Source of the DNA: a virus
Taxonomy: Duplodnaviria > Heunggongvirae > Uroviricota > Caudoviricetes
Virus record (IMG/VR): IMGVR_UViG_3300041405_000130
Reading direction: 5' to 3' (one strand)
DNA length: 64,000 nucleotides
In this document: positions 4,130-56,199 of the stretch, piece by piece
Numbering within the stretch: position 1 is the first letter of the stretch
Layout: each line of letters opens with the position of its first letter
Notes under the pieces: generated by a model
Database searches by the model: none
The model's input: only the letters and a program-made list of their open reading frames with translations
Told to the model about the DNA's origin: nothing
Program-made: the position numbers and the translations under genes

Positions 4130-4483
4130 ATGCGATTCAATTGGGAACCCGGTCGACAAGGAACAGGTTACGAGAAATTACAACTCTTAAACCGTTGGAA
4201 GTTCTTTAGTCGATTTAAATGGGATCTTTACTTACTGCGTTACCCGGTAGGCTCAGGTATCCCTAGACATCGTGATCCATTACCTAACCACAGGCATTAC
4301 CGGTTAAACATCTATCTGCGCAACGCAAGTGCAGGTGGTGTCCCTGAACATGATGATGTAATCATAAGCAACCGCTTCTTTACATTGTTCAGACCAGATT
4401 TGTCAACACACAGCGTTAGCCCCGTAACTAAAGGTACGCGCTATGTCTTAAGCTTTGGCTTATCAAAACAAATTAACGTCTAA
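4130..4483 (+). CDS. Small 2-oxoglutarate/Fe(II)-dependent oxygenase-like protein
   Basis: H-x-D (RHRDP) ... H (THSVSP) ... R-x-S (RYVLS) motif arrangement typical of the 2OG-Fe(II) dioxygenase double-stranded beta-helix; GAGG RBS. Confidence 0.5.
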   Translation: MRFNWEPGRQGTGYEKLQLLNRWKFFSRFKWDLYLLRYPVGSGIPRHRDPLPNHRHYRLNIYLRNASAGGVPEHDDVIISNRFFTLFRPDLSTHSVSPVTKGTRYVLSFGLSKQINV

Positions 4484-4511
4484 ACTCTCTTTCCATCCGC
4501 GTGAGGTTTAT

Positions 4512-5777
4512 ATGAAACAAGAAACAAAGACATTTGAAATCATTGGTGGAGAACCCGAACCGGGAACTAAACCGATCAAAGGCTGGACTGTCGGCGTGCC
4601 GGTAGAACCAGAAGCTGTTAAACAACTGAAGAACATTGCTGCACTTCCGTTCATCTATTCCCACGTCGCAGTAATGCCTGACGTTCATTTGGGTAAAGGT
4701 GCAACGGTTGGTTCTGTGATCGCTACTAAAGGCGCTATCGTGCCAGCAGCAGTCGGTGTAGACATTGGGTGCGGAATGGCAGCCCAACGCCTGCGCTTCT
4801 CCTCAGACGCGCTTCCAGAGTCTCTGGGGCATCTCCGTGCCGCTATTGAATCGTGCGTACCTCATGGACGTACGGATAATGGCGGTAAGAACGATCGTGG
4901 TGCTTTTGGTACCGTGTCTATCTTCAATCATCAAGTGAAAGCTGTACGCGAAGAAGCTGAAAAGCTCCGCCGGCAACTGGACTCGATTGTTGAACGGCAT
5001 CCAAAACTGAAGCGTGCTTCTGAGAAAGCCTGGAACCACGTAGGTACACTTGGTACAGGTAACCACTTCATCGAACTGTGTCTAGATGAAACAGATCGTG
5101 TGTGGATTATGCTGCACTCTGGTTCTCGTGGTATTGGTAACGCTATCGGTTCGTACTTCATCGAGAAAGCCAAAGAAGAGATGGGTCGGTTCTTCATCCA
5201 TCTGCCGGACAAAGATCTGTCATATCTTCCAGAAGGTTCCCGTTACTACAACGATTACGTTGAAGCGGTATCCTGGGCGCAGCGCTTTGCTGCATTGAAC
5301 CGTTCGGTAATGATGCACGCTGCACTGGGCGCTATTCACCGTACGTTGGGTCTGCCGATTGATTCTGATATGGAAGCAATCAACTGCCACCACAACTACG
5401 TGTCTGAAGAACGACACATGGGACAAAACGTTATCGTAACTCGTAAGGGTGCGGTAGCTGCTCATGAAGGTACTCTGGGGATCATCCCTGGATCGATGGG
5501 TGCTAAGTCTTTCATCGTTCGCGGTAAAGGTAATCGTGATTCCTTCTGCTCGTGTTCGCATGGAGCTGGTCGTGTCATGTCGCGTACCCAAGCTGCCAAG
5601 ACCTTTACACTGGAAGATCACATCCGTGACACAGCTGGTGTTGAATGCCGTAAGGATATCGAGGTAATCGATGAAACACCTAAGGCATACAAAAACATCG
5701 AAGACGTGATGTCTGCTCAGGAAGAACTGGTAGATATCGTTCATACACTGAAACAATTCCTGTGCGTGAAAGGATGA
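4512..5777 (+). CDS. rtcB: RtcB RNA 3'-phosphate/2',3'-cyclic phosphate to 5'-OH ligase (tRNA/RNA repair)
   Basis: Hallmark RtcB motifs GTLGTGNHFIE, CHHNY and SHGAGR; 421 aa from ATG 4512 (GAGG RBS); the ORF-track start at 4455 is TTG. Confidence 0.9.
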   Translation: MKQETKTFEIIGGEPEPGTKPIKGWTVGVPVEPEAVKQLKNIAALPFIYSHVAVMPDVHLGKGATVGSVIATKGAIVPAAVGVDIGCGMAAQRLRFSSDALPESLGHLRAAIESCVPHGRTDNGGKNDRGAFGTVSIFNHQVKAVREEAEKLRRQLDSIVERHPKLKRASEKAWNHVGTLGTGNHFIELCLDETDRVWIMLHSGSRGIGNAIGSYFIEKAKEEMGRFFIHLPDKDLSYLPEGSRYYNDYVEAVSWAQRFAALNRSVMMHAALGAIHRTLGLPIDSDMEAINCHHNYVSEERHMGQNVIVTRKGAVAAHEGTLGIIPGSMGAKSFIVRGKGNRDSFCSCSHGAGRVMSRTQAAKTFTLEDHIRDTAGVECRKDIEVIDETPKAYKNIEDVMSAQEELVDIVHTLKQFLCVKG

Positions 5778-17147: not shown

Positions 17148-17537
17148 TTATGCTGCTGTTGCCTGACGATCCAGCAGATAGTTATCACGCACAATGCGCC
17201 ACTGATCTGCAAGATTAATTCGGTTGTAGTTCGACTTCAAGTGTTTCAGGAAATCTTTAGGTGGCCGTGCTGCAAGCCCCTCCAGATCTTCAGGGTCCCA
17301 TGGACTGCCGGTTACCGAGACTTGTGCTGCCAGGCCCAGTTCCAACATCTCCAGAGCTTTCTGCTCCAGGATAGCCTCGCCACGATAGCCAGGCATACCT
17401 GGGAACAGATCCAAGAACTTAGGCCACTGTTCTAGGATGTATTCTTTACGCAAACGCGCCAGTTTCTGATCTTTAGTTTCGACCATGGTCGATTGAATAG
17501 TAGTATTACCCACGACTGTATCCTTGTTTGATTGCAC
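17148..17537 (-). CDS. Hypothetical protein (129 aa)
   Basis: ORF. Confidence 0.5.
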   Translation of the reverse strand: MQSNKDTVVGNTTIQSTMVETKDQKLARLRKEYILEQWPKFLDLFPGMPGYRGEAILEQKALEMLELGLAAQVSVTGSPWDPEDLEGLAARPPKDFLKHLKSNYNRINLADQWRIVRDNYLLDRQATAA

Positions 17538-18475: not shown

Positions 18476-18640
18476 TTAAGCTGCCAAAGTGGCGCCAATC
18501 AAAACTGCAGTGGTAAAACCCATCAGCAATGCGCTGTATTTAGTATTATCGTGTCTCGGCCCATAAGCCATCAGTGATGCAACCGTGCTACCAAATGCAA
18601 CAACGGTAAGTATCCCAAACAAACCTGCAACCAAACCCAT
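18476..18640 (-). CDS. Small two-helix membrane protein (~54 aa)
   Basis: Below the ORF-track threshold; MGLVAGLFGILTVVAFG... Confidence 0.35.
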   Translation of the reverse strand: MGLVAGLFGILTVVAFGSTVASLMAYGPRHDNTKYSALLMGFTTAVLIGATLAA

Positions 18641-25167: not shown

Positions 25168-25392
25168 TTAAAGTACCTTGTTATTTTCTTTATCAAACAG
25201 CACGTTAACGCTGAAGAAGCTAGATACGGTGAACCGGTGTGGCCAACCGAGTGGTTTTGGATCAGGTGTGACGGTGTCATCAATGACAAAGCCCACCACG
25301 TTATTTTCAACCCTTACCAGACGATCCGGCATGTAAACTTTAGGGCCGAACTTCGGGCACGTATCATACACACCGTCAGCTAGATTGTGCAT
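25168..25392 (-). CDS. Hypothetical protein (74 aa)
   Basis: ORF. Confidence 0.4.
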
Positions 25393-26624
25393 TGAGGTAT
25401 ACCTTTCTTGTAAGCTTTCAAAGCCATCAGTCTTGCTAACCTGAGTGCTTTACCTAGGTCTGGACCTTTGTACCCTTTTTCAATCAGTGGCTGTGTTTCC
25501 ACAAGGCGCACTGTGTTAGCTGCACAACGCATGTACTCAGCTTGTGGGTATGCACGATGTTCCAAACCATCTCGACCCCTGGCATCCATCTCACATGCGC
25601 GGATGAAATCCTCGAATCGTTGTGGCCTGCGATATATGTCAAAGCTTTGCAACAACTCCAACAATTTCTTTGGCGTTAGTTCCATAGCCCGATGACAATG
25701 GGTGTGGTATTGACACACCAGCGATGCTAATTGCTGGCAATCCTTCGGCACTTTAAATCGAGCATTGACATCATTAACTAATGGCACCCCCGACTTTTCA
25801 TGCTTCAGATGTTGTGGCCATTCCTCTTTAGGAGTTACACCTTTACCCAGATCATGCAACAAACATGCCCAACGAATCGGTAACGATTGCTGAAACAATG
25901 ATGCCTGTCGCAATACACTCAAGATATGTAAGCCAGTACAGATCTCTGGATGATGTGCCGCAGGCTGTGGTACACCAAACAACGCATCAACCTCTGGTAG
26001 CAATACCTTTAGCGCACCACAATCCCGTAACACTTCGATAAAGACATGTGGGTCATCTTCCATTAACGCACGAGATATTTCTTTCCAACTGCGTTCAGCG
26101 GCTAATGTTTTCAGTTCACCAGATTCACTGAGTTGACGCATCAACTCTAATGTTTCAGGTGCCACTGTAAACCCCAAGCATGCATAACGGGCTGCAAAGC
26201 GAGCTACCCGTAATACACGCAATGGATCTTCAGCAAAAGCCGGAGATACATGACGCAGCACTCGATCTTGCAAATCACGCAGACCATTGTAAGGATCAAT
26301 CAGGTTTAGTTGATCATCCTCAGCAATAGCATTAATCGTCAAATCACGACGACTAAGATCTTCTTCCAACGTTACATCAGAACTGGCATGGAAAGTAAAG
26401 CCACCATAACCAGTTCCACTTTTACGTTCGGTACGAGCCAGCGCGTATTCTTCACTCGTCTCCGGATGTAAGAACACAGGGAAATCAGTACCGACTGGTT
26501 TGTAGCCTTGCTCTAACATTTCCTCAGTAGTAGAACCAACCACTACCCAGTCTACGTCAGTTACAGGGAAACCCAGCAATCGGTCACGTACGGCGCCGCC
26601 GACTTTATAAACTGTTGGTTTCAT
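25380..26624 (-). CDS. cca: tRNA nucleotidyltransferase (CCA-adding enzyme) with C-terminal HD domain
   Basis: Strong motif match to bacterial class-II CCA enzymes throughout the N-terminal head: [63 protein letters not shown], then the HDLGKG HD motif. Confidence 0.9.
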
Positions 26625-30972: not shown

Positions 30973-31266
30973 TTATTCCTCAGAACGCTTATGCATGATT
31001 ACATCTCGAAATGTTTTGGGGTCATCCATTTCCCGAGAGTATGCAAATTCATGCCACTTATCATAGATCTCCATGGGGAGATGATTAGCTTCGGCCATTG
31101 TTCGAAATCCAAGAGTTATGCCCAAGATGATACCATGGCGAGTACCCTCGTGGTAATATATACAAGCAGTTGATGGATCGTTAGCTTCTGCGTATGATGG
31201 TCCCTGAGATTCCACGATCATGTTGTGGAACAGCTCTTGGTAATCAGCCATAGTGCAGGTCAACAT
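30973..31266 (-). CDS. Hypothetical protein (97 aa)
   Basis: ORF. Confidence 0.45.
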   Translation of the reverse strand: MLTCTMADYQELFHNMIVESQGPSYAEANDPSTACIYYHEGTRHGIILGITLGFRTMAEANHLPMEIYDKWHEFAYSREMDDPKTFRDVIMHKRSEE

Positions 31267-38223: not shown

Positions 38224-38482
38224 TTTTTACCCCAAAGTAAATCAAAATAGCAACGGCGGAAAACATAGACCAAACGAGCAAGTTAGCCACACACAACAGC
38301 TTGAAATAATCAAACTTGGCGCGACAATGTTCGATGTAGTCTGCTCCGTGAATTCTCGGCTTGTAATTTACAGCCATCCGATTCGATTCACGCCCCAAGG
38401 CAAACGCCCGATATAAGAGCCAACATCCACACAATCCCAACGGGACAAGATATATGATCAGTGGAATGACGGGATACGTCAC
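38210..38482 (-). CDS. Membrane protein (90 aa)
   Basis: Three hydrophobic segments. Confidence 0.45.
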   Translation of the reverse strand: MTYPVIPLIIYLVPLGLCGCWLLYRAFALGRESNRMAVNYKPRIHGADYIEHCRAKFDYFKLLCVANLLVWSMFSAVAILIYFGVKNGAS

Positions 38483-38997
38483 GCCGCTGCACTCCGTACA
38501 GATTTGTTCTGCATCGAAGTAAAAGCTTCAGCTACGTCTTCACTGGCGATAGCCGAGAATCCGTTACCGCCTTGGTTCAGTTCACGACGTTCACCATTGA
38601 CGGTGTAATCGCTCATGACCTGAGTCAAGGCCATAGCAAGCTCGCTGGCGATCCACAGGTAGTTTTTACCCCAGGGTTTGCTGGTGGCCGTTTCTACTGT
38701 AGTTACCCCTACATCGCCTCGACGCAGGGTATGATGAACTTCTTCCCATTTACCGGAAGGTTTCTTTTCGATACGCAAAATGATTACATCTGCGCCTTTA
38801 TCACGAACCTTAGCAAAGATCAGATTCGTATGTGGGTTGAGTTGGAACAGTCGGGATGGTTCCTCATCCAACATGTTCATGTAACCACCAGAAAGGAAGT
38901 CACGAGTTGCAGCATCGATCATTGCCAATCCGATACGTTTAGCGTTAGTAGCTTTGTTCATTATTGTGGCCTTAAATGCTGCAGAGAGTTCTTGCAT
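38479..38997 (-). CDS. Hypothetical protein (172 aa)
   Basis: ORF. Confidence 0.5.
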   Translation of the reverse strand: MQELSAAFKATIMNKATNAKRIGLAMIDAATRDFLSGGYMNMLDEEPSRLFQLNPHTNLIFAKVRDKGADVIILRIEKKPSGKWEEVHHTLRRGDVGVTTVETATSKPWGKNYLWIASELAMALTQVMSDYTVNGERRELNQGGNGFSAIASEDVAEAFTSMQNKSVRSAAA

Positions 38998-42707: not shown

Positions 42708-42967
42708 AATGCAATCGCCGGCATGAGTTTGTTGGAACCACTGTTAAATTCGACAACAACCTTTTCACCAACCAGGTCTGAATAGTCACCATCAACAGCA
42801 ATCGATTTTGGCCCATCGTCTACAATAAGCACGGCTACACAGTTTACCAGCTTGTCACCTTCGATATCACACTTGGTGGCAAGAACTTCACCCACAACAA
42901 CTGGTTGTGCGGCGTACAACGGCAATGCCCAGCACAAAGCTGTCACTGCGATAAGTTTACGGATCAT
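42704..42967 (-). CDS. Small secreted protein (87 aa)
   Basis: Signal peptide ..LPLYAAQP. Confidence 0.45.
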   Translation of the reverse strand: MIRKLIAVTALCWALPLYAAQPVVVGEVLATKCDIEGDKLVNCVAVLIVDDGPKSIAVDGDYSDLVGEKVVVEFNSGSNKLMPAIAL

Positions 42968-43443
42968 GCTGCTTCCTTTTCTACTAAGCTTTTAGCAATC
43001 TTCATTGCGTGATTGTAATCGGTGACCACTTCGCCATTCAAGAACTTCTCGAAATAGCTACTGATGTCAACTGGACCTTTGAGTGTTTCGCGTGTGGAAG
43101 AACAGCAACGCGCGTAAGGGTTGTCGATGTAGCGCTCTACCAGAGCCACCATTTCTGGTTGTTCTTGTTTGGTGGACTCAGGTAGACACATCCACAGCAG
43201 TAGATAGTGGTTGATCTTGAGTAACCCACCAACACGGATTACATCACGAGCCAACCAATATTCCATCAGATACTTGAATGCCACGTAAAACTTGGACAGA
43301 TCTGTTTCACCCATCAACAACTTGTACCATGGGTATTCTGCCAGAGGAGAGGCTTTCCACTCTGCGTGACGAGCAATTAGGTCCTCACGCATTTTAAGCA
43401 CGTAAGCCGTTTCTTTAGCTCGTTGTTCTTCGTACGGACTCAT
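42964..43443 (-). CDS. Hypothetical protein (159 aa)
   Basis: ORF. Confidence 0.5.
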   Translation of the reverse strand: MSPYEEQRAKETAYVLKMREDLIARHAEWKASPLAEYPWYKLLMGETDLSKFYVAFKYLMEYWLARDVIRVGGLLKINHYLLLWMCLPESTKQEQPEMVALVERYIDNPYARCCSSTRETLKGPVDISSYFEKFLNGEVVTDYNHAMKIAKSLVEKEAA

Positions 43444-44272: not shown

Positions 44273-45643
44273 TTAATCGTCAGCTTTCTTGAGCAAGTAC
44301 GAGTTCGAGATAGCTTTCCACGACATTACGCGTTTCAGCGACTTGAACACGATACCTTCACGATAGGTACCTTTCTTCTGGTTGAAAGCACGTTGACCTT
44401 CAGCCATGGCCAGGACATCTTTAACAGTCCACTCTTTCGGAATTACGAAACGTTCGTGCATCACAGGAACGTAGGTCAGACCCAGTTCTTCTACGATCTT
44501 ACGAGCTTCTTCCGGCAGAACTTCTTCGTTACCGTTGCGGTACACGTTGAAGATGTGGTATTCGTGTTCTTCTACACCTTCGAAGCCAGACTGGATGTCA
44601 GGACCGATCTGCTCACCTTGCAGGGTGATGAACTCACCGGTACGAGCATGGTAGGCTTTCAGCTTACCCAGGATGTCGTACTTAGCGATAGTGCGGGTGT
44701 AGTTGTTATCACCACCTTCGGTCTTCGCTTTCCACTCTGGAACAGTGATACCATTCCAACGGATGCGCAGTTTGAAGTTACCTTCGTCATCTTTGGTTTT
44801 CTTCCAAGAAACGATCTTACGGTTACGTGCCAGGAAAGTACCAACCCAGTAACGCAGCTGTTCGGTAAAGGTCCATTCTTCGCCACCGATACCCAGCTCG
44901 TAATTACGCGAGCAGACACCAGTACGAACACCACCATCATTGATGCAGAAAGCAGTCATCGATTGACCGTCGAGTTTGTAAGTTACTTCAAACTCTTCTT
45001 CTTCCGATTGAGCTACCGAGAAAGCAACAGTTTTGTTCTGTACGCGGTCTTGATCGGACTTAATCAGTTGAGCAGGCCATGGCATCAGAGTGCCACCGAT
45101 GTTACCGAGGATCTTACGGATCAAACGGCTGTACCAACCCGAGTTACCCACAGCAGCAGGCCCATCGCGTTCGGTTTGTGGCTTTGGCTCGTACTTCAGG
45201 ATACCGAGTTCCAGAGTCAGGTTAGTATCAACCGGAGCGTCTTTGAACTTATCGGGAACCGGAACCAGCAAACCTTGCGACAGTTCTTTACGCAGTTTGA
45301 TAGTGGTCAGGCGGTGGTAGTTCTCGCCGTTAACACGACGGTTAGACGAACGACGTTCTTCCAGGAAACCAAACAGTGCTACGTTCGACAGCGGTAGCAG
45401 GGAATCGATCTCACAGTAAACAGCGCGTTCGCCTTTCTTGTACTCGCCAATCTTGACGCACAGTTGCCAACCACCAACGACAGCCAGTTCCAATGCATCG
45501 GCATTAGGGTGCTTAACAACGTCATCGATAACAACAATACGTGCAAGCTTGCGATCTTTTTCTACAACACCAAAACCTTCTTTGATCGGCTTGTCAACCA
45601 GAACAGTTTCAGCTACAACTGGAGTAACCACTTCTTGGGTCAT
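44273..45643 (-). CDS. ATP-dependent RNA ligase (KxDG nucleotidyltransferase) fused to an N-terminal tRNA-binding OB-fold (Myf/Trbp111-like) domain
   Basis: N-terminus VVKHPNADALELAVVGGW matches the tRNA-binding-domain signature (KHPDADKL...V.VG); KLDGQS is the ligase motif I; start set at ATG 45643 (GAGGAAGA RBS) rather than GTG 45754. Confidence 0.6.
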   Translation of the reverse strand: MTQEVVTPVVAETVLVDKPIKEGFGVVEKDRKLARIVVIDDVVKHPNADALELAVVGGWQLCVKIGEYKKGERAVYCEIDSLLPLSNVALFGFLEERRSSNRRVNGENYHRLTTIKLRKELSQGLLVPVPDKFKDAPVDTNLTLELGILKYEPKPQTERDGPAAVGNSGWYSRLIRKILGNIGGTLMPWPAQLIKSDQDRVQNKTVAFSVAQSEEEEFEVTYKLDGQSMTAFCINDGGVRTGVCSRNYELGIGGEEWTFTEQLRYWVGTFLARNRKIVSWKKTKDDEGNFKLRIRWNGITVPEWKAKTEGGDNNYTRTIAKYDILGKLKAYHARTGEFITLQGEQIGPDIQSGFEGVEEHEYHIFNVYRNGNEEVLPEEARKIVEELGLTYVPVMHERFVIPKEWTVKDVLAMAEGQRAFNQKKGTYREGIVFKSLKRVMSWKAISNSYLLKKADD

Positions 45644-45707
45644 TGCATCTTCCTCGTGGGATATTGAAACAGATCTCTCTGTATTCAATAATCCACACGA
45701 GTACTTT

Positions 45708-46091
45708 TTAGCAGATAACCGTAAGGGCAGTGGTCTTGTTGTTACTAACGCCACTACTAACCCGGAAGGTCCACGCGTTGTAACCTACACGCCAGTATGG
45801 ATAACGCAGCACGATTACTTGCATGTCACCGGTATACTGCGTTTGCAACGTCTTAACGATTTGATCAACCGAGTACGTCTTTTCTTTCAGTTCCGACAGT
45901 TCAGCAATGGTCGTCTTCTTAACCGACCACGTCCGGGTAACCATGGTTAGCAACCAGATGATCCAAACTACGAAGGCAATGAAACCATCGATCAGGCTGT
46001 TTTGAATCCACCAATACCAACCGGTATCAGCGGGCTTGCGTTTCTTTACTTCACCTGTAATCAAAGAAAACAGGTAAATCAGCTTTTCCAT
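45708..46091 (-). CDS. Membrane protein (127 aa)
   Basis: Two TM helices. Confidence 0.5.
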   Translation of the reverse strand: MEKLIYLFSLITGEVKKRKPADTGWYWWIQNSLIDGFIAFVVWIIWLLTMVTRTWSVKKTTIAELSELKEKTYSVDQIVKTLQTQYTGDMQVIVLRYPYWRVGYNAWTFRVSSGVSNNKTTALTVIC

Positions 46092-49426: not shown

Positions 49427-49462
49427 CAAAAAAGAAAATAGGATGGGGACCCGAAGGTCCCC
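49427..49462 (-). terminator. Terminator GGGGACC-UUCG-GGTCCCC + U-rich
   Basis: After nadV. Confidence 0.65.
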
Positions 49463-49468
49463 GTCCGA

Positions 49469-51292
49469 TTATGCGGCTTCTTCTACTTCAGGAGCAAACT
49501 CACGTTGGATCGATGCTTCAATACGTGCACGCATATCACCAAGTGTTACTTGACGCAGGAACTTACCATTACGGAACAATGGCTTCAGTTCGCCAGAACC
49601 GTTCAGCAGGTCATCCCAGGTCATATCGACTTCTTGTTCGAGACGGTAGTTGAAATCCGAATCCTGTACCACGCGCAGGAAGCCTTTAGCCGACTTCTTG
49701 GACAGTGCAGTTTTTGGATCTTTGTACAGCTCGATCAGTTCGTCATTCACTTCGCAAGCAGTGGCTTTCATCGCCATGCCGAAAGTATCACGAGTGTTCA
49801 TCTGGTAGGTATAAGAACCGATACCCAGAACCACGTTAGACGATGCGTAGCCTTTCTCAGCCAGACGGCGGAAGATTTGCTCTGCACGTTCAACAGTGAT
49901 AGAGTCACCGTAGATCAGACCGATGTATTCGTTCAGGACTTTGTAGCCCTTAGTGTTTACATGGCCACCGAAAGAAGCCCACAGCGATTCGATCGCACCA
50001 CGTGCTTCCACTTCGCGCATCTCACGACCGAGTAGTTCTTCGGCAGTGGAGTTGCTGAACTGATGTGGGTTTCTGTGGTTTTGCAATTCGTAGAACTTAT
50101 CGCCGATACGGATAGCTTCACCGTTAACAGCTTCCCAACCGATGTTGTGCAGGGCTGCAACGAAGTCTTCGCGAGAATTGTACTCGACCAGATAGAAGCC
50201 ACAGATCACATGAACCGGATTGCCCGAGTCAGGACGAACTACAACTTTAGCCAGACCGAGTTCGTTCTTGATTCGGCTTTCGATTTCGGCACGGATCGAT
50301 GGTAACAGATCGGCAACTACCGACCAGAAGTCAAACGAATCGCATACCAGCGAGATGATACCGGTCTTGACTTTCTGCAGGATGATTTCCAGAATGTATT
50401 CGCGCTCACATTCCAGTTTCAGCTTGTCGATGAAAGCAGCCCAGTTTTCAGGAGCGATGGTCTCACTATCTTTGTCCAGCCACTTCAGCTTTTGTTTCAG
50501 GCGGGACAGGATGTTTGCAGTGGCTACGGCGTGCTCAGTAGCAGTAACCGAACCAGCAATCAACTCCTTATCGGAATCGGCGTGATACAAGCCCTCCAGG
50601 TAATCGATAGCCGGAACGGTATCGGTACCAGTAAACGACAACATGTGACCAGCGTTCGAACGACCAGCAGCTTCTGGGCCAGGCATACCACGGAACGAGA
50701 AGTCATGACCCTGCCATTGCACGTGCAGGTTATTGTCACAGGTCTCTTCGGCCCAGTGCTCCATGACCCGACGATATTCGTAGGCGATGGTTGCGTTAGT
50801 GATCGACTGCCAGTTATACGAACTGGTGATGGTTTCCAGATAGTTAACCAACCAGTAATGTTCTTTCTCATCATCGGAACTGTAAACAACCCACAGTGGG
50901 ATACCGATGTTAACACGCTGACCTTCTTCCAGCGCCAGTACGGTGACCGGCAGGTAACCCAGATCGTGAAGCTTAGCGATCTGACGGGTGGAAATAACGT
51001 CTACACCGCAAGCATTGTCGAAACGACGCTTGACTTCTTTAACAGCTTTCTTCTTCTCTACTTGGAAGAAGGTACGGTCCCACAGTTCAACCAGTTCTTG
51101 CCAGGTGCCATAGAGACCGAAGTTCACAACTTTGTTATCGTAGTGAACAGAGCAGGATTTGGAGTTCAGGAAGTTCTTCGCCGAACGAGGGGTGAAGTTG
51201 GAATACTTCCGGGTGGTGCCTTCTGGGTACAGAGGACCGTGACCAGGTTTGTAGAAGTCAGTAGCGGTTGCTGCTTTAAGCCATTGTGCCAT
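49469..51292 (-). CDS. nadV: Nicotinamide phosphoribosyltransferase (NadV/NAMPT family)
   Basis: N-terminus DFYKPGHGPLYPEGT...SNFTPRS matches the NadV/NAMPT signature (DSYK.SH...YP....S.FTPR); 607 aa type-II PRTase; AAGGAA RBS. Confidence 0.75.
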   Translation of the reverse strand: MAQWLKAATATDFYKPGHGPLYPEGTTRKYSNFTPRSAKNFLNSKSCSVHYDNKVVNFGLYGTWQELVELWDRTFFQVEKKKAVKEVKRRFDNACGVDVISTRQIAKLHDLGYLPVTVLALEEGQRVNIGIPLWVVYSSDDEKEHYWLVNYLETITSSYNWQSITNATIAYEYRRVMEHWAEETCDNNLHVQWQGHDFSFRGMPGPEAAGRSNAGHMLSFTGTDTVPAIDYLEGLYHADSDKELIAGSVTATEHAVATANILSRLKQKLKWLDKDSETIAPENWAAFIDKLKLECEREYILEIILQKVKTGIISLVCDSFDFWSVVADLLPSIRAEIESRIKNELGLAKVVVRPDSGNPVHVICGFYLVEYNSREDFVAALHNIGWEAVNGEAIRIGDKFYELQNHRNPHQFSNSTAEELLGREMREVEARGAIESLWASFGGHVNTKGYKVLNEYIGLIYGDSITVERAEQIFRRLAEKGYASSNVVLGIGSYTYQMNTRDTFGMAMKATACEVNDELIELYKDPKTALSKKSAKGFLRVVQDSDFNYRLEQEVDMTWDDLLNGSGELKPLFRNGKFLRQVTLGDMRARIEASIQREFAPEVEEAA

Positions 51293-51310: not shown

Positions 51311-52255
51311 TTACAGGTGCTTGAATGCGATCAGGTTTTCAGGATTGTTTTCACGCTGCGGTAAGTCAACGTGATAAGTGTTCATGGTGTAGACTTTGTC
51401 AAAGACACTGGTCAACACTTCAACACCAGCGGAGAAAATACCGTGGGTAACGTACAACGACAACGAACCCAGATCATAGTCCTTCAGAACTTTTGCCAGT
51501 TCGGTAAAGGTACGTCCACCGTCACAGATATCGTCAACGATCAACAGATCTTCACCAGCCAGATCAGTCAGTTCCATTACTTCATCGCCAGCAACAAAGC
51601 TGTCAACGGTAGTGCGCAGGATCTTACCATCACGAGTGTTACGAACTTTATTGGCATACACGATGCCTTTAAAGCCAAACTCTTTTGCCAGTGATTCTAC
51701 CTTCTTACGTGCACCAGCATCAGGTGCAACCAGAATGGTATTCTTGGGATTGATGCGATCATCATTACCCCAATCCAACATGTGTTTACGGAACAGATCA
51801 TTCAGCGAGAACACACGTGCATTGTTCAATACCGAACCAATAACGTCAGAGTGCGGATCAGTCAAGATCACACGTTCTACGTCAAGGCTATTGATGACAT
51901 GAGCAAATGCTTTAGCCGAATTCGCTTCACCTGGGTTACACACACGGTCTTGTCGAGCGTATGGCATGTAGCCGATGTCAAGCGTGATTGATGGGTTGGC
52001 CACCAATGCGTTTTCACGAATAGCGTTTACAGCCATGATCAAAGACCACGCTGCCGCCGCATCTGGTAGAGCTGCAACGATCCGATAGCTTTCACCTTTG
52101 AACCACTGGCCCTTCTGGCTCATGCCATCTTCACGAGGAATGGATACGTTTACTTCACCAGCCGGAAACATCCGACCATCACGAATTTCGGTAGGGAACG
52201 AGCGAGTCACTCCCACACCTTCATGCGTTACGATCAGTTTCAGATTCTGATTCAT
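51311..52255 (-). CDS. prs: Ribose-phosphate pyrophosphokinase (PRPP synthetase)
   Basis: PRPP-binding loop LLIVDDICDGGRT and a bipartite PRTase fold; co-operonic with nadV. Confidence 0.75.
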   Translation of the reverse strand: MNQNLKLIVTHEGVGVTRSFPTEIRDGRMFPAGEVNVSIPREDGMSQKGQWFKGESYRIVAALPDAAAAWSLIMAVNAIRENALVANPSITLDIGYMPYARQDRVCNPGEANSAKAFAHVINSLDVERVILTDPHSDVIGSVLNNARVFSLNDLFRKHMLDWGNDDRINPKNTILVAPDAGARKKVESLAKEFGFKGIVYANKVRNTRDGKILRTTVDSFVAGDEVMELTDLAGEDLLIVDDICDGGRTFTELAKVLKDYDLGSLSLYVTHGIFSAGVEVLTSVFDKVYTMNTYHVDLPQRENNPENLIAFKHL

Positions 52256-52608
52256 GCAACTTCCTTTTCATCTGCTATTAATTGCAGGGGCATTGTGAAC
52301 TCAGCAGCGAACAACAGTTCTACATCACCGAGCTTTGTTTTGATATTGCTGGTTGCTTCATAGCGGCAAGTCTGCAGATCCATAATCAAATCAGTTTCTT
52401 GCTCACCCGAACGTACCAGGAACCGGGCAACTTTGCCCAGCTCCACGCCACGTGAAATTACTTCGATCTCATTCGTCAGAATATGATCGCTGTGAAATGC
52501 GCCCAGGAACTTAACCATAACACAAGTGCCTTCCGTCAGGAAGCGATCTTTGTGATAAGTCATTTCTTCTGGTTGTACTCGGAACACGTGTTGCAGTTTG
52601 GTATCCAT
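52252..52608 (-). CDS. Hypothetical protein (118 aa)
   Basis: ORF, ATGA overlap. Confidence 0.5.
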   Translation of the reverse strand: MDTKLQHVFRVQPEEMTYHKDRFLTEGTCVMVKFLGAFHSDHILTNEIEVISRGVELGKVARFLVRSGEQETDLIMDLQTCRYEATSNIKTKLGDVELLFAAEFTMPLQLIADEKEVA

Positions 52609-52619
52609 GTCACTGTGCC

Positions 52620-53996
52620 TTATGCGGCGGCTGCAATATCCAGTTGTTGGGAAGCATTAGCCGCTTTCTTTTTGATAGGTGGGCGCGGTGGCTCTGGTTG
52701 TAGAGCATAGTTCTCCGCGACGTATTTGTCATCCAACGTATCCAGCTTATCAATGAAGGCCAGATGATCGTCAGGGTGTTCCATGAAGATCCCTGCCAAA
52801 GTAGAAGCGGGAACATCTGGGTACACTACATTACGATCGTAAGTAGGATTATCATACATCGAGTCAATGTAACGCTTGATCTCAGGGTCTTTCAACGGCA
52901 ACACTTCGATCAGTTTGTTCACACGGGACGGACGGTAGACCGCTGGGTCGATCAGTTCCAAGTGGTTAGTAGTCAGGATGATAATGATGTCATCCAGTTC
53001 TACAACGCCTTGTAGGACGTTGAGGAAGGTACTGAGTTGAATCTCACAGTCCATCAACAACGCTTCTGGTTTCTTATCAGCACTGCCGCCATCGAAATCA
53101 GACATTTCGACTTTCTTAGCACCAACCCGTCGGTGCAAAGATTTCACATCATCAAAGTCTTCAATGACCAACATATCGCCAGGAGACAGTTTACCCATCA
53201 GATCCACTAACTGACGACCATGGGAAGCCAGATTGAGGAAGTGGATGTCTCGCTTGTACTTACGACCAGCCCGTTTGATCAACGAAGTTTTACCAGTACC
53301 GGGAGGACCGTGCAACACGATGGTGTGCTTGTAAGCCAAACCACGTTTACGGTACCAAGCTTCGTTCTTCATGTACCAGTCGATAGAGCCAAAGAAATCT
53401 TTCTCTACTTCAGGATCAATGATCAATGTTTCGTCTGCATCTAAACGCAACCGGCCTTGGAAGTTCCAACCGTCATTGGCTGGACCATAGATTCGGATGG
53501 ACTTTTTGCATGGCTTGATTCGGAACTCTTCTACCAGTTCTTCAAATGGAGCAGTAGTACGACCGAACGTATAAAGCGTAAACTCTTCTTTCTCGATATC
53601 GGTACCGGAAGAATTCAAACGTACCACGTTAAACCAGAAGTAGCGACCTTTCCAGACGAACCAGTGAAAGCCAGTACCAGGACCAAAGGCTGGATTATCT
53701 CGATCGAATGTAACACGACGATTACGATCGTACTTAGCCCATTTCGACTTGGAGAACCATCGCATAAACTCGATGTAGTTCTGCATGTCCATGGAATAAG
53801 AACCAGCACGAGTGAAGGTCATTGACGAGATGGTGTTCCGTTTAATGAAACTCCAGATCGTTCTGGGAATGGTACGTCCCAGATAACCCAACAAGCCCAT
53901 AAGGCCCAAGGTCATAAAACCTTTTACCGTTGAGTCTCCCGAACTCAACATTTCTAGCGTCTTGTGAAAGAACGCCAAAATATCTGTTACAAGCAT
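52620..53996 (-). CDS. BCS1-like membrane-anchored AAA+ ATPase
   Basis: N-terminal TM (MTLGLMGLLGYLG), Walker A GPPGTGKTS, Walker B MLVIEDFDD (BCS1-type IEDxD), Arg-finger region; 458 aa. Confidence 0.65.
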   Translation of the reverse strand: MLVTDILAFFHKTLEMLSSGDSTVKGFMTLGLMGLLGYLGRTIPRTIWSFIKRNTISSMTFTRAGSYSMDMQNYIEFMRWFSKSKWAKYDRNRRVTFDRDNPAFGPGTGFHWFVWKGRYFWFNVVRLNSSGTDIEKEEFTLYTFGRTTAPFEELVEEFRIKPCKKSIRIYGPANDGWNFQGRLRLDADETLIIDPEVEKDFFGSIDWYMKNEAWYRKRGLAYKHTIVLHGPPGTGKTSLIKRAGRKYKRDIHFLNLASHGRQLVDLMGKLSPGDMLVIEDFDDVKSLHRRVGAKKVEMSDFDGGSADKKPEALLMDCEIQLSTFLNVLQGVVELDDIIIILTTNHLELIDPAVYRPSRVNKLIEVLPLKDPEIKRYIDSMYDNPTYDRNVVYPDVPASTLAGIFMEHPDDHLAFIDKLDTLDDKYVAENYALQPEPPRPPIKKKAANASQQLDIAAAA

Positions 53997-54706
53997 TATT
54001 CCGCCCCAGGCATCAGCAGTACTGTTGTGTCGAAACCTTCGGCTCGGACATAGTCAAAGAAAGGATCTTCCAAGCCTACCTCTTCACCAGGTTCGCATTT
54101 TTCTTTCAGGTGATTATCGCAATAAACGATAGCGTTTTCTGTTTGGCGTTTTACCAAACGGAAGAAATCCGCTGTAAGTAACAGCACCACAGTGATTGTC
54201 AAGTGTTTGGTAGTACGCGGTATCGACCACTTGTGATCTTCGCGCTCATCCAGGCCAACCCCAACTACGATCATGTCGAAGTTTTCACGGAGTTGGTCAT
54301 AACCGAGGCGTTGTTGTGAACGGAGACCTTCTAATTGGACGTCCAAACCCCAGCTCATTACGTGGTTGATGGTAGCGGCATGAATCATTTCATGAATGGC
54401 ACCATACGAATTTTCGGCGTCGTTTAGATCGGGCCAATACGTACGGATGTTTTCATGCATAACCCACAGATTGCCATCTGCCATTCGACTCATGGGAACC
54501 GTACGGATGTTAACCTGTACGAGTTCTTTAGAATCGATCGACAATGCTTCAGGCATCCACGCCAGTTTGTCGTACATCAGATCATTCAGATCGTACCGAT
54601 TGATCGGAGCAAACGCTGGTTTGTCGGCAATGAAATGAAAGATACCAGCTATGCGTGGCCGGGAAGAGCTTTGTACAATGTGAGCCTTTTGTTCAACCAA
54701 ATTCAC
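53996..54706 (-). CDS. Putative zinc metalloprotease (HExxH, metzincin-like HEMIHAATINH spacing)
   Basis: HEMIH with a third His at +10; GTG start with strong GAAGGAGG RBS; translationally coupled between the SspB-like and AAA genes. Confidence 0.45.
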   Translation of the reverse strand: MNLVEQKAHIVQSSSRPRIAGIFHFIADKPAFAPINRYDLNDLMYDKLAWMPEALSIDSKELVQVNIRTVPMSRMADGNLWVMHENIRTYWPDLNDAENSYGAIHEMIHAATINHVMSWGLDVQLEGLRSQQRLGYDQLRENFDMIVVGVGLDEREDHKWSIPRTTKHLTITVVLLLTADFFRLVKRQTENAIVYCDNHLKEKCEPGEEVGLEDPFFDYVRAEGFDTTVLLMPGAE

Positions 54707-55449
54707 GCTTTGCCTCCTTCAATTACACGCCAGTTGTTAGGTATAGCGCGTTTGACTTTTGCTGCTGGCAGTTGTGTGCCATTTACATTGCCGAAGTTCA
54801 GTAATGGTGCAGGTTGTTCTTTTGCAACCGGTTTTGCAGGACGTTGTGCCAGGGGCTTACGACGCATGAGTTCCACATTGGTCGGCAGTTTATTACCTTC
54901 CTCATCATGAGTAGCAATTTCCACACCATGTACAGCGTACGGAGAATCTTCAATAGCCTTTGCAGCTTTGAATGGAGGTGGAGTGGTATCTTGAGCAGAA
55001 CCTGGGAATGTCCCGCCACCTTCGAAAGCATTCAACTGAGGAATGCCTTCTTCTTCAAACATTTTGTGGAGATCTTGCATTTGTTTCACCCCGAGCAATT
55101 CACGCTCGAAGTTAGGAATGGGGAGAATGCTTTCGTAGTTCTCTGTGGTTGGTACAGCGAAGCCCAGTACTGCTTCGTACGGAACTTCCAGATAAACATC
55201 AGCACCATTATAGCCACACTGAAAACTGAAGTTGTCTTCATTGTAACGGAAATTGCGAGTTGCGTTTGCAGCGATATTCAGACGGATCTGGTATAACCCG
55301 TTGATCTCTGGTTCTAACAGCCCGACATCAAACATCCGAGCATCGGTGATGATGTGAATACGACGGGACATGTCCATGTCGACGAACCATTGAATCATGG
55401 TATTCATAATTGCGCGAGTCATGTTCAGCTCAGGTGCTACTTGTTGCAT
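54703..55449 (-). CDS. SspB-like ClpXP specificity-enhancing adaptor homologue
   Basis: N-terminal domain aligns with SspB residues 10-100 (W..D...H..VD.....V.VP.....G.I.LNIA..A..N......V.F.....G......VP..AVL.....EN); Pro-rich linker and a C-terminal ..WRVIEGGKA tail reminiscent of the SspB ClpX-binding LRVVK. Confidence 0.55.
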   Translation of the reverse strand: MQQVAPELNMTRAIMNTMIQWFVDMDMSRRIHIITDARMFDVGLLEPEINGLYQIRLNIAANATRNFRYNEDNFSFQCGYNGADVYLEVPYEAVLGFAVPTTENYESILPIPNFERELLGVKQMQDLHKMFEEEGIPQLNAFEGGGTFPGSAQDTTPPPFKAAKAIEDSPYAVHGVEIATHDEEGNKLPTNVELMRRKPLAQRPAKPVAKEQPAPLLNFGNVNGTQLPAAKVKRAIPNNWRVIEGGKA

Positions 55450-55484
55450 CGTCTTACTCCAAATTTTAACGTTAGTATTCAGTT

Positions 55485-55513
55485 AAGTAATATAGATTTC
55501 AGATTTGTTGCAC
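55485..55513 (-). promoter_or_regulatory. Promoter-like motif (minus: GCAACAAATCTGAAATCTATATTACTT) driving the sspB-like / protease / AAA / prs / nadV operon
   Basis: AATCTGAAATCTATATTAC, identical to the motif at 63773-63806. Confidence 0.5.
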
Positions 55514-55710
55514 TACAACAACAGCATGCCGGCGATACATGCAACGTCTATTAGTATCGCAATACCAAGAAGCCACCGCATAAAACGTTTAGTGTCTGGT
55601 AGATATACCGTCCACCATACCCCTGCTGAGGCACACCCGGCCAAAATACCGATAGATAATACTTGCGACAGTGCAGCTAATACGGCAAATAAAAACGGAT
55701 GCTCTAGCAT
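55513..55710 (-). CDS. Tiny membrane protein (65 aa), first of a run of 4 overlapping small hydrophobic ORFs (to ~56170)
   Basis: Hydrophobic; ATG-coupled chain. Confidence 0.4.
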   Translation of the reverse strand: MLEHPFLFAVLAALSQVLSIGILAGCASAGVWWTVYLPDTKRFMRWLLGIAILIDVACIAGMLLL

Positions 55711-55825
55711 GATTTAAACCACCGCCACAACAGCCGGCCAAGTTCCAATACACCCCAGCCAACCACAGAGATCGCCAAGACCATCATAAACAGTTCTAGG
55801 TACATGTCTTGCGCATTGAAGGTCA

Positions 55826-56035
55826 TTACTTCACCACCATCACTAGCAGAGCTGCAGCGGTCATTAACACTAACCCACTGAACTTTTCATCCGAGTGGGA
55901 TCGACCGATGTCATCAGCATCTACATCCGGGCCACGTTCACCGAAGAATATCCCGGCACCAATTACGAATAAAACAAAGGCAACTAAATACAAGCCCCAC
56001 ATACTAACAAGCCGTAGTGGTAATGATGCCAGCAA
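55826..56035 (-). CDS. Tiny membrane protein (69 aa)
   Basis: Hydrophobic, acidic tail. Confidence 0.4.
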   Translation of the reverse strand: MLASLPLRLVSMWGLYLVAFVLFVIGAGIFFGERGPDVDADDIGRSHSDEKFSGLVLMTAAALLVMVVK

Positions 56036-56199
56036 TAATAGCTACGATACCACCAATAAGGCAGTCACGATCCCAACCGCGCTTTTTACTGCGAGAAAAC
56101 AAGAGTGCTATAACACCCACCACAATCAGAGTACCACCCATTGCTAGAATCCTTTTGTATCGATGGGACATAAAGCCTTCCGCAAGGGAAGGCTAAATA

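Follow-up and report, generated by a model that had tools for sequence, protein, structure and literature searches.

SspB is an adaptor built from an N-terminal substrate-binding domain, a linker and a docking peptide, the last of these being the C-terminal segment that binds the N domain of ClpX, and a C-terminal Ala-Ala (-AA) resembles the end of the ssrA tag that ClpX recognizes (PMC9963277). SspB-like proteins have been reported in phages, for instance the cytoplasmic gp39 of Erwinia phage RAY (PMC10299810) and gp18 of the Pseudomonas phage pf16 (PMC5587285). Orthologues of the AAA+ ATPase BCS1, whose mitochondrial form translocates a protein in its folded state (Tang et al., 2020, as cited in PMC7824862), have already been described in jumbo phages, where a role near the membrane, in assembly or in translocating folded proteins, has been suggested for them (Iyer et al., 2021; PMC7824862). 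NARP1, which comprises Adps and Namat, is a phage NAD+ reconstitution pathway (bioRxiv 10.1101/2024.02.11.579819), and its loci can host accessory anti-defense genes such as RyDEP (bioRxiv 10.64898/2026.05.28.727677). Here an operon with parts of each of these kinds is analyzed in a 64,000-nucleotide stretch of viral DNA, IMG/VR record IMGVR_UViG_3300041405_000130, hereafter the window. Three open reading frames (ORFs) on its minus strand, on which all the features of the operon given below also lie, encode an SspB-type adaptor (gene A, 54703-55449, 248 amino acids), a PHIKZ233 homologue predicted to have a Nudix fold without a Nudix box (gene B, 53996-54706, 236 amino acids), and a BCS1-family AAA+ ATPase (gene C, 52620-53996, 458 amino acids, phrog_7485); orf118 (gene D), a Prs-like gene and a NAMPT-like gene follow them. 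Each part belongs to a known kind: SspB-like and BCS1-like genes of jumbo phages have been published, and the pair downstream conforms to NARP1. The reading that we favor, with a rough probability of 0.4, is that A attaches to host ClpX and delivers to it phage proteins bearing ssrA-like tags, the first of them C, while B would act as a ligand-binding partner.

The assignment of A as an SspB homologue, already proposed in an earlier reading of the sequence alone (the sequence-only reading), is supported by matches to Pfam, NCBIfam and PDB entries. Residues 11-118 (55096-55419) correspond to the SspB substrate-binding domain: the Pfam SspB model (PF04386) matches residues 12-102 with an E-value of 2.5e-5 and 24.8 bits, just below its cut-off of 27, the NCBIfam models of ClpXP specificity factors match with 3e-7, and the PHROG ‘SspB-like’ family with 6e-4. 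A profile of the A family (16 members), compared with all PDB sequences, finds ten SspB chains over residues 14-99 with E-values of 4e-7 to 3e-6, the sole other match being insignificant (E 0.77); in this comparison the strand QIRLNIAANATRNF of A is aligned to QIVLNLSASATGNL of SspB. Five relatives of A carry a precomputed PF04386 match. Beyond the domain, the members of the family possess about 130 more residues, with the conserved motifs PYAVHG, LPTxxELMxRKPLAQRP and PLL(N/D)FG; about 70 residues of the A tail are conserved, and the family consensus at its end is [LW]x[VL]IQGGK, represented in the window by the XB-like motif NWRVIEGGKA (residues 239-248, 54706-54735). The C-termini form a graded series that runs from RPALRVVK in E. 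coli SspB through PTLTVVK in RAY gp39, PKLTVIKGGKK in PA7 and phiKZ, and PHLRVIQGGKA in D6 to NWRVIEGGKA in the window. At the level of sequence pattern, the end of the A tail is a variant of the segment with which SspB docks on the N domain of ClpX. This grading, together with the domain match, makes A an SspB-type adaptor by domain and architecture. A ubiquitin-like reading of the ...IQGGK(A) end was dropped, as no sign of a beta-grasp was seen and the motif grades into the XB peptide of SspB.

The resemblance to E. coli SspB (b3228; PDB 1OX9, 1OU8 and 8ET3) thus covers the homologous N-terminal substrate-binding domain, the succession of domain, linker and docking peptide (PMC9963277), and a hydrophobic-x-V-(V/I) end like that of ALRVVK. 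Unlike the E. coli protein, which has 165 amino acids, A is encoded by a phage, is 248 amino acids long, carries a tail with additional conserved motifs, terminates in IQGGK(A), and scores below the Pfam cut-off.

Gene B had been read as an HExxH zinc protease with metzincin spacing from the string HEMIHAATINH (residues 105-115, 54362-54394), which lies within the helix formed by residues 103-118 (AIHEMIHAATINHVMS). HExxH is present in 1 of the 20 members of the B family, the window copy, and the others have HDMVN, HDMVH, TSMVE, HTIAE, HAMLE, QDMVH and so on at these positions, with D, S, T, N, A or Q where the glutamate would be; judged from this alignment, the string is a chance feature of one sequence. 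Searches with B in Pfam, PHROGs, NCBIfam, PADLOC and the PDB gave no match, a hit to a RibD-type reductase in the PDB (E 0.88) having been dismissed as chance. The family is small: a search of 5.8 billion proteins gave 5 and then 7 clusters, and its profile, run against 1.84 billion representatives, gave 18 matches, 16 of them of family size (224-244 amino acids). P0035 (4924 amino acids) and P0037 (922 amino acids) match the profile over short stretches only and were treated as spurious.

The structure of B was predicted from two alignments. With five sequences the predicted local distance difference test score was 55, which is too weak alone, and with 20 sequences it was 87. The predicted structure has the alpha/beta/alpha fold of Nudix proteins and is related to the Thermotoga maritima protein TM1382 (PDB 3E57, ‘putative Nudix hydrolase’), with which B has 12% identity and no match at the sequence level, and for which no functional work was found in the literature. 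Among the structural neighbors there are non-hydrolyzing Nudix folds that bind ADP-ribose or NAD, namely NrtR, NadQ and the NUDT9H domain of TRPM2, and in a viral fold library nothing was matched except the Psa21 orthologue and, weakly, some Nudix-like structures. According to the order of the secondary-structure elements, helix 103-118 would be the Nudix-box helix; the box itself, GX5EX7REUXEEXGU, was found in none of the 20 members with either the strict or a relaxed pattern. When compared with TM1382 and with non-catalytic Nudix folds such as NrtR and the C-terminal domain of MutY, the B family is set apart by the lack of the box in all its members, and B by about 60 extra residues at the N-terminus and 40 at the C-terminus. 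According to the model, B has a Nudix fold that lacks the catalytic box and is not a protease, and, as no member has the box, it probably binds rather than hydrolyzes its ligand. The predicted fold assignment is new for the gp233 family, so that an orphan family of jumbo phages (phiKZ gp233 and its relatives) gains a fold.

These results decide the fate of the first mechanism proposed for the locus, a split FtsH-like machine in which C would be the unfoldase, B the HExxH zinc protease and A their dedicated adaptor. FtsH is an AAA+ module fused to an M41 HExxH zinc protease, and the only likeness to it is that C is a classical-clade AAA+ protein with a weakly hydrophobic N-terminal segment and a weak similarity to FtsH in its AAA part; the HEMIHAATINH string of the window had lent the split machine apparent support. 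However, C is nearest to BCS1 and groups with it, and no M41 domain occurs in C or anywhere else in the A-B-C cluster. B has no match to a peptidase hidden Markov model in Pfam, NCBIfam, PHROGs or PADLOC, and the sequence-only reading had made its proposal depend beforehand on a protease fold in B, where the predicted fold is that of Nudix proteins. No peptidase is detectable in the six operon genes by Pfam, PHROGs, NCBIfam and fold comparison. Since the cluster encodes no protease, the split FtsH-like model is unsupported and can hardly be credited, and the idea of a phage-encoded FtsH-like protease at this locus is removed as a false lead; the same absence of a protease in the operon suggests a possible use of host ClpXP.

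Gene C matches both BCS1_N (PF08740, 46.2 bits against a cut-off of 28.1) and AAA (PF00004, 43.7 bits). Among solved structures, yeast and mouse BCS1 come closest to it (E 6e-22), and the alignment to the yeast protein covers residues 103-381, through the Bcs1-specific domain. The Walker A motif GPPGTGKT (GPPGTGKTS, residues 230-238, 53283-53309, invariant with respect to seven phage homologues) and the Walker B motif IEDFD are present; in eight phage homologues G230-K236, S238, E279, D280, the sensor-1 residue N344, R355 and R358 are invariant. By its motifs, C belongs to the AAA+ ATPases of the BCS1 family and is catalytically intact. It shares with mitochondrial BCS1 (PDB 6SH3 and 6UKO) and phage BCS1 (phrog_7485) the Bcs1-specific domain and the classical AAA module, in which both Walker motifs, the sensor 1 and the arginines are intact, as well as a weakly hydrophobic N-terminal segment; it differs from them in an identity of about 25-30% and in a clade-specific extension with an ssrA-like motif. 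In the sequence-only reading C was a membrane-anchored BCS1-type ATPase, of which the ATPase with intact Walker motifs stands, while the anchor is only plausible: the candidate N-terminal segment (GFMTLGLMGLLGYLG) is conserved and glycine-rich, but weakly hydrophobic (Kyte-Doolittle mean of about 0.9-1.4, calculated by hand), and it does not rank with the most hydrophobic segments of 19 residues in C. PADLOC matches of C to IetA/TRIP13 (E 3e-9 or weaker, over short stretches) were set aside as generic AAA similarity. As a separate observation, the BCS1-like ATPases of PS119XW and of the phiKZ group (L006, 3396-4910; L022, 2384-3910) have roughly 70-100 additional residues inserted after Walker B and before sensor 1, which the C of the window does not have.

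All nine C orthologues that adjoin A and B have a C-terminal extension that opens with Y(I/V)A(E/N)NYA(L/M/I) and continues into a proline-rich variable stretch, and six of the nine end in -AA. In the window, the motif is YVAENYAL (residues 425-432, 52701-52724) and the C-terminus is AAAA (residues 455-458, 52623-52634); C thus reads AENYAL where the ssrA tag is AANDENYALAA. This is the only match to [DEN]NY[AG][LMIA] in the window ORFs of at least 80 amino acids, and the chance of such a 5-mer in the three proteins (A, B and C) lies between 1e-3 and 1e-2 by a rough, post hoc estimate. No tmRNA is encoded in the window. The ssrA-like tail of C, recognized from its sequence, is a new feature.

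Endings in -AA are not limited to C. Six of the 114 predicted window proteins end in Ala-Ala (one of them in ...TLAA), where about 0.7 would be expected from the frequency of internal AA dipeptides (P 1e-4); the corresponding ORFs are at 17148-17537, 18476-18640, 38479-38997, 42964-43443, 49469-51292 and 52620-53996, all on the minus strand. In 60 kb of phiKZ there are no such endings (0/80). The orthologues of C, orf118 and the NAMPT-like protein frequently end in EAA. In orf118 (118 amino acids, 52252-52608), which has no family match and is kept in all the relatives, with 32 invariant positions in 8 sequences, five of the eight orthologues end in KEAA or VEAA.

According to the favored reading, a dimer of A would dock on the ClpX N domains through the A tail, and its SspB-like groove would grip an ssrA-like element on phage proteins, the first of which would be the tail of the co-translated C. 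Such tethering would result in a timed removal of phage proteins by ClpXP, or in the mere occupancy of ClpXP. As for B, its non-catalytic Nudix fold would take up a nucleoside-diphosphate-X ligand and tune the adaptor; with the NARP1-like genes on the same transcript, ADP-ribose or another molecule derived from NAD would be the natural guess for this ligand. A device that redirects host ClpXP, which the sequence-only reading had offered as its alternative, is close to this model and viable. In favor of the favored reading, the ssrA-like motif is found in nine of nine orthologues coupled to A and B and in none of five BCS1-like proteins from elsewhere (Derbicus, Munch, PS119XW, phiTE and the phiKZ group); the -AA endings of six of the nine C tails, the excess of such endings in the window, the overlap of the B stop with the C start and the graded C-termini of A speak for it as well.

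Several points weigh on the other side. The resemblance of the C tail to ssrA spans only tag residues E5-L9, and the binding of A to C and to ClpX is conjectural; E. coli SspB, in work of Flynn et al. from 2001, is said to read mainly A1-D4 and Y7 of the tag. The A-B pair of phiKZ has no adjacent BCS1-like gene and the BCS1-like protein of phiKZ has no tail, and C may therefore be a later neighbor rather than a partner. The excess of -AA endings is weak in another 50 kb of Psa21 (2/89, P 0.12). The additional motifs of the A tail are not explained by the model, the ligand of B is a guess, and it is odd that a phage should co-express a protein with the adaptor for its own degradation.

The same pieces could be assembled with the opposite polarity. 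A would then dock on the ENYAL tail of C and, with B, recruit substrates to the BCS1-like ring, a self-contained machine that would assist in moving or remodeling a folded client, be it at the inner membrane or in an early infection compartment. In this sense, it is important to note that the three genes are tightly coupled and co-conserved, that the ssrA-like motif is part of the C tail itself, that the 70 or so conserved residues of the A tail go far beyond the need of a passive linker, and that mitochondrial BCS1 acts on a folded protein (PMC7824862). Nevertheless, the end of A is a close variant of the ClpX N-domain-binding motif, also in phages in which the BCS1-like gene lies elsewhere, C has BCS1_N and not the zinc-binding N domain of the ClpX type, the polarity is the reverse of that of SspB and ClpX, and no client is evident. 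We regard this machine as distinctly improbable.

A more ambitious extension of the favored ClpXP reading, which we consider rather unlikely, would be a private degradation code, made of the SspB-type adaptor and of tags that mimic ssrA (the ENYA(L/M) tail of C and the early -AA proteins), with the Nudix partner as a nucleotide gate. ClpXP would then clear early phage proteins on schedule, or would be saturated or diverted from host or defense substrates, and B would gate this use of ClpXP in response to a nucleotide such as ADP-ribose. Should A in fact bind host ClpX and recognize an ssrA-like tag on phage proteins, as the favored reading has it, a virus would itself be furnishing a host AAA+ protease with a specificity factor and with tags, for which we know of no precedent. 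This would bear on the timing of early functions, on host takeover and on counter-defense, with phiKZ and Psa21 as tractable systems.

The source of the window is a Psa21-like (Tepukevirus-like) jumbo Pseudomonas phage. Its closest records are the Pseudomonas jumbo phages Psa21 (Tepukevirus), D6 and RVTF4, of 300 kb, and the identities to relatives of this type lie at 45-61% (A), 30-40% (B) and 68-77% (C). The order A-B-C-orf-Prs-NAMPT-orf-ThyA is held in Psa21, D6 and five metagenomic relatives (L009, L010, L012, L015 and L016), and in RVTF4 A-B-C is kept up to the end of the stretch of its record that was compared; the three genes are thus conserved together in all the complete Psa21-like relatives compared, as the sequence-only reading had required beforehand for its functional unit. 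An apparent natural variant without C and Adps (L008) proved to be an artefact of 100-nt scaffold gaps.

A wider comparison separates the history of the A-B pair from that of C. In the phiKZ group, the SspB-like gene is followed by one or two short ORFs, PHIKZ233 (235 amino acids) and the ThyA gene PHIKZ235. The 302-amino-acid SspB-like protein of PA7, which corresponds to PHIKZ232, matches the A family with a hhalign E-value of 2.7e-10, and PHIKZ233 matches the B family with 2.6e-10 over 187 columns, while four unrelated neighbors used as controls gave values above 0.05. The BCS1-like gene of phiKZ lies elsewhere and not between gp232 and ThyA. Given that the order is the same in phiKZ, and that the Psa21-like clade alone has C, orf118 and the NAD genes interposed between B and ThyA, the A-B-ThyA arrangement is, from gene order, ancestral. 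SspB-like genes occur in 81 phage records and are common in jumbo phages. Phage proteins such as phiKZ gp232 (phrog_25970), RAY gp39 (phrog_8945) and pf16 gp18 belong to the same family as A and share its series of C-terminal motifs, and gp232, like A, adjoins a B homologue with thymidylate synthase downstream; unlike A, none of the three is followed by genes for a BCS1-like ATPase or by NARP1-like genes. The SspB-like genes of RAY and LucasX have no B-like neighbor according to hhalign (E >0.05). The conserved pairing of an SspB-like gene with a gene for a predicted Nudix-fold protein across Phikzvirus and Tepukevirus-like phages is new, and it shows that the phage SspB-like gene has the B family as its conserved companion in two jumbo-phage groups distant from one another. 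No functional study of phiKZ gp232 or gp233, RAY gp39 or pf16 gp18 was found in the literature.

It follows from this distribution that A, B and C might be co-located without being coupled. The A-B pair would be an old one that acts on host ClpXP substrates, boosting, competing with or redirecting ClpXP on ssrA-tagged or other host proteins, and C would have an independent function in jumbo phages, having been inserted with the NARP1-like genes between B and ThyA in the Psa21-like clade. The run gp232-gp233-gp235 of phiKZ, with no BCS1-like gene before ThyA, compared with A-B-[C-D-Adps-Namat-orf]-ThyA in the clade of the window, is what such an insertion would leave. C homologues are present in 162 phage records, mostly of jumbo phages; in the four other neighborhoods inspected, those of the BCS1-like genes of Derbicus, Munch, PS119XW and phiTE, neither annotation nor Pfam shows a gene of the SspB-like or Nudix type, the A and B profiles not having been applied there, and LucasX and RTH11 keep their SspB-like and BCS1-like genes far apart. 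The role already suggested for phage BCS1 would also suit an independent C (PMC7824862). On the contrary, the stop of B overlaps the start of C, the order is kept in every member of the clade that reaches that far, and the ssrA-like tail of C, which is specific to the clade, coincides exactly with adjacency to the SspB-like gene. We regard co-location without coupling as a serious, if doubtful, alternative to the handover of C to host ClpX. As to the novelty that the sequence-only reading had claimed for the gene combination, BCS1-like and SspB-like genes of jumbo phages were already described, whereas the tight A-B-C arrangement is specific to the clade and no functional study of it was found; for phage BCS1, nothing functional was found in the literature beyond a comparative note (PMC7824862). 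Jumbo phages widely carry the BCS1-like ATPase, which is still without a known function; a defined binding partner would give a first way to approach it.

The operon extends past C, as the sequence-only reading had held when it continued it into NAD genes. A Prs-like gene (51311-52255, 314 amino acids; phrog_619, E 4e-73; Pfam Pribosyltran, Pribosyl_synth and Pribosyltran_N) and a NAMPT-like gene (49469-51292, 607 amino acids; phrog_448, E 2e-172; Pfam NAPRTase with 114 bits, and NAMPT_N) precede a terminator-like hairpin. The order and the Pfam families of the two genes match the definition of NARP1, and, judged by order and families, they are probably a NARP1 pair (Adps and Namat, respectively) rather than ordinary NAD salvage genes.

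The surrounding window, an accessory region, also holds RtcB, a CCA-adding enzyme, an RNA ligase, five tRNA genes and thymidylate synthase; the set of tRNA and RNA-repair genes, which includes the RtcB-type ligase, is found at 438-1890 and 4455-5777 on the plus strand and at 25380-26624 and 44273-45754 on the minus strand. RNA-repair genes are of a kind thought to counter anticodon nucleases and are taken here to be typical of counter-defense regions. In such a setting, B might be an accessory of NARP1 that binds or sequesters immune signals derived from ADP-ribose, or feeds ADP-ribose to Adps, with A and C as passengers. B is on one transcript with the Adps-like and Namat-like genes, NrtR, NadQ and NUDT9H of TRPM2 are among its structural neighbors, RNA-repair genes are present in the same region, and RyDEP is a precedent for accessory anti-defense genes in NARP1 loci (bioRxiv 10.64898/2026.05.28.727677). 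The constant neighbor of B, however, is the SspB-like gene and not NARP1, and phiKZ gp232-gp235 includes a B homologue with neither a Prs-like nor a NAMPT-like gene. A role of this type is very unlikely.

The layout of the locus agrees with the translational coupling of the three genes proposed in the sequence-only reading, with overlaps of stop and start between A and B (GTGA, the start codon of B being GTG) and between B and C (TAATG). A spacer of 11 nt separates C from orf118, the stop of orf118 overlaps the start of the Prs-like gene (ATGA), and the NAMPT-like gene begins 18 nt after the Prs-like gene. The end of the operon is marked by the GC-rich hairpin (GGGGACCTTCGGGTCCCC) followed by a T-run at 49445-49462; as the genes continue past C to this point, the operon is taken to comprise six genes (A, B, C, orf118, and the Prs-like and NAMPT-like genes).

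The conserved promoter that had been proposed before A is likewise supported. A motif resembling the early promoters of phiKZ (AAATCTGAAATCTATATTAC) is located at 55487-55506, 37 nt upstream of the ATG of A. Its core, TATATTAC, occurs eight times in the window (at 14777, 28882, 31153, 36445, 41409, 55487, 60525 and 63774), always on the minus, coding strand, where 1.35 copies would be expected, and none of 100 shuffles reaches eight. Seven of the eight copies are in AT-rich intergenic sequence, 30-45 nt before an ATG and often after TTTAAA...AAGnC; the copy at 31153 appears to fall within a coding sequence. The extended form AAATCTnAnATCTAyATTAC upstream of A is kept in nine of ten clade loci, with one further A in D6. 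Motifs of this type are what we take to be the phiKZ early-promoter consensus, and the set of the window looks like promoters of that class.

Two observations concern the sequence just upstream of the operon. Two of the metagenomic relatives carry, immediately upstream of A, an inserted gene that resembles those of homing endonucleases (I-TevI DNA-binding domain; GIY-YIG; L016, 6280-6990; L015, 5955-6521), and in L016 it abuts the start of A and displaces the promoter motif. In the window, four tiny and strongly hydrophobic ORFs (65, 40, 69 and 55 amino acids) lie upstream of the operon promoter, at 55513-56171 on the minus strand, and possibly encode small membrane proteins.

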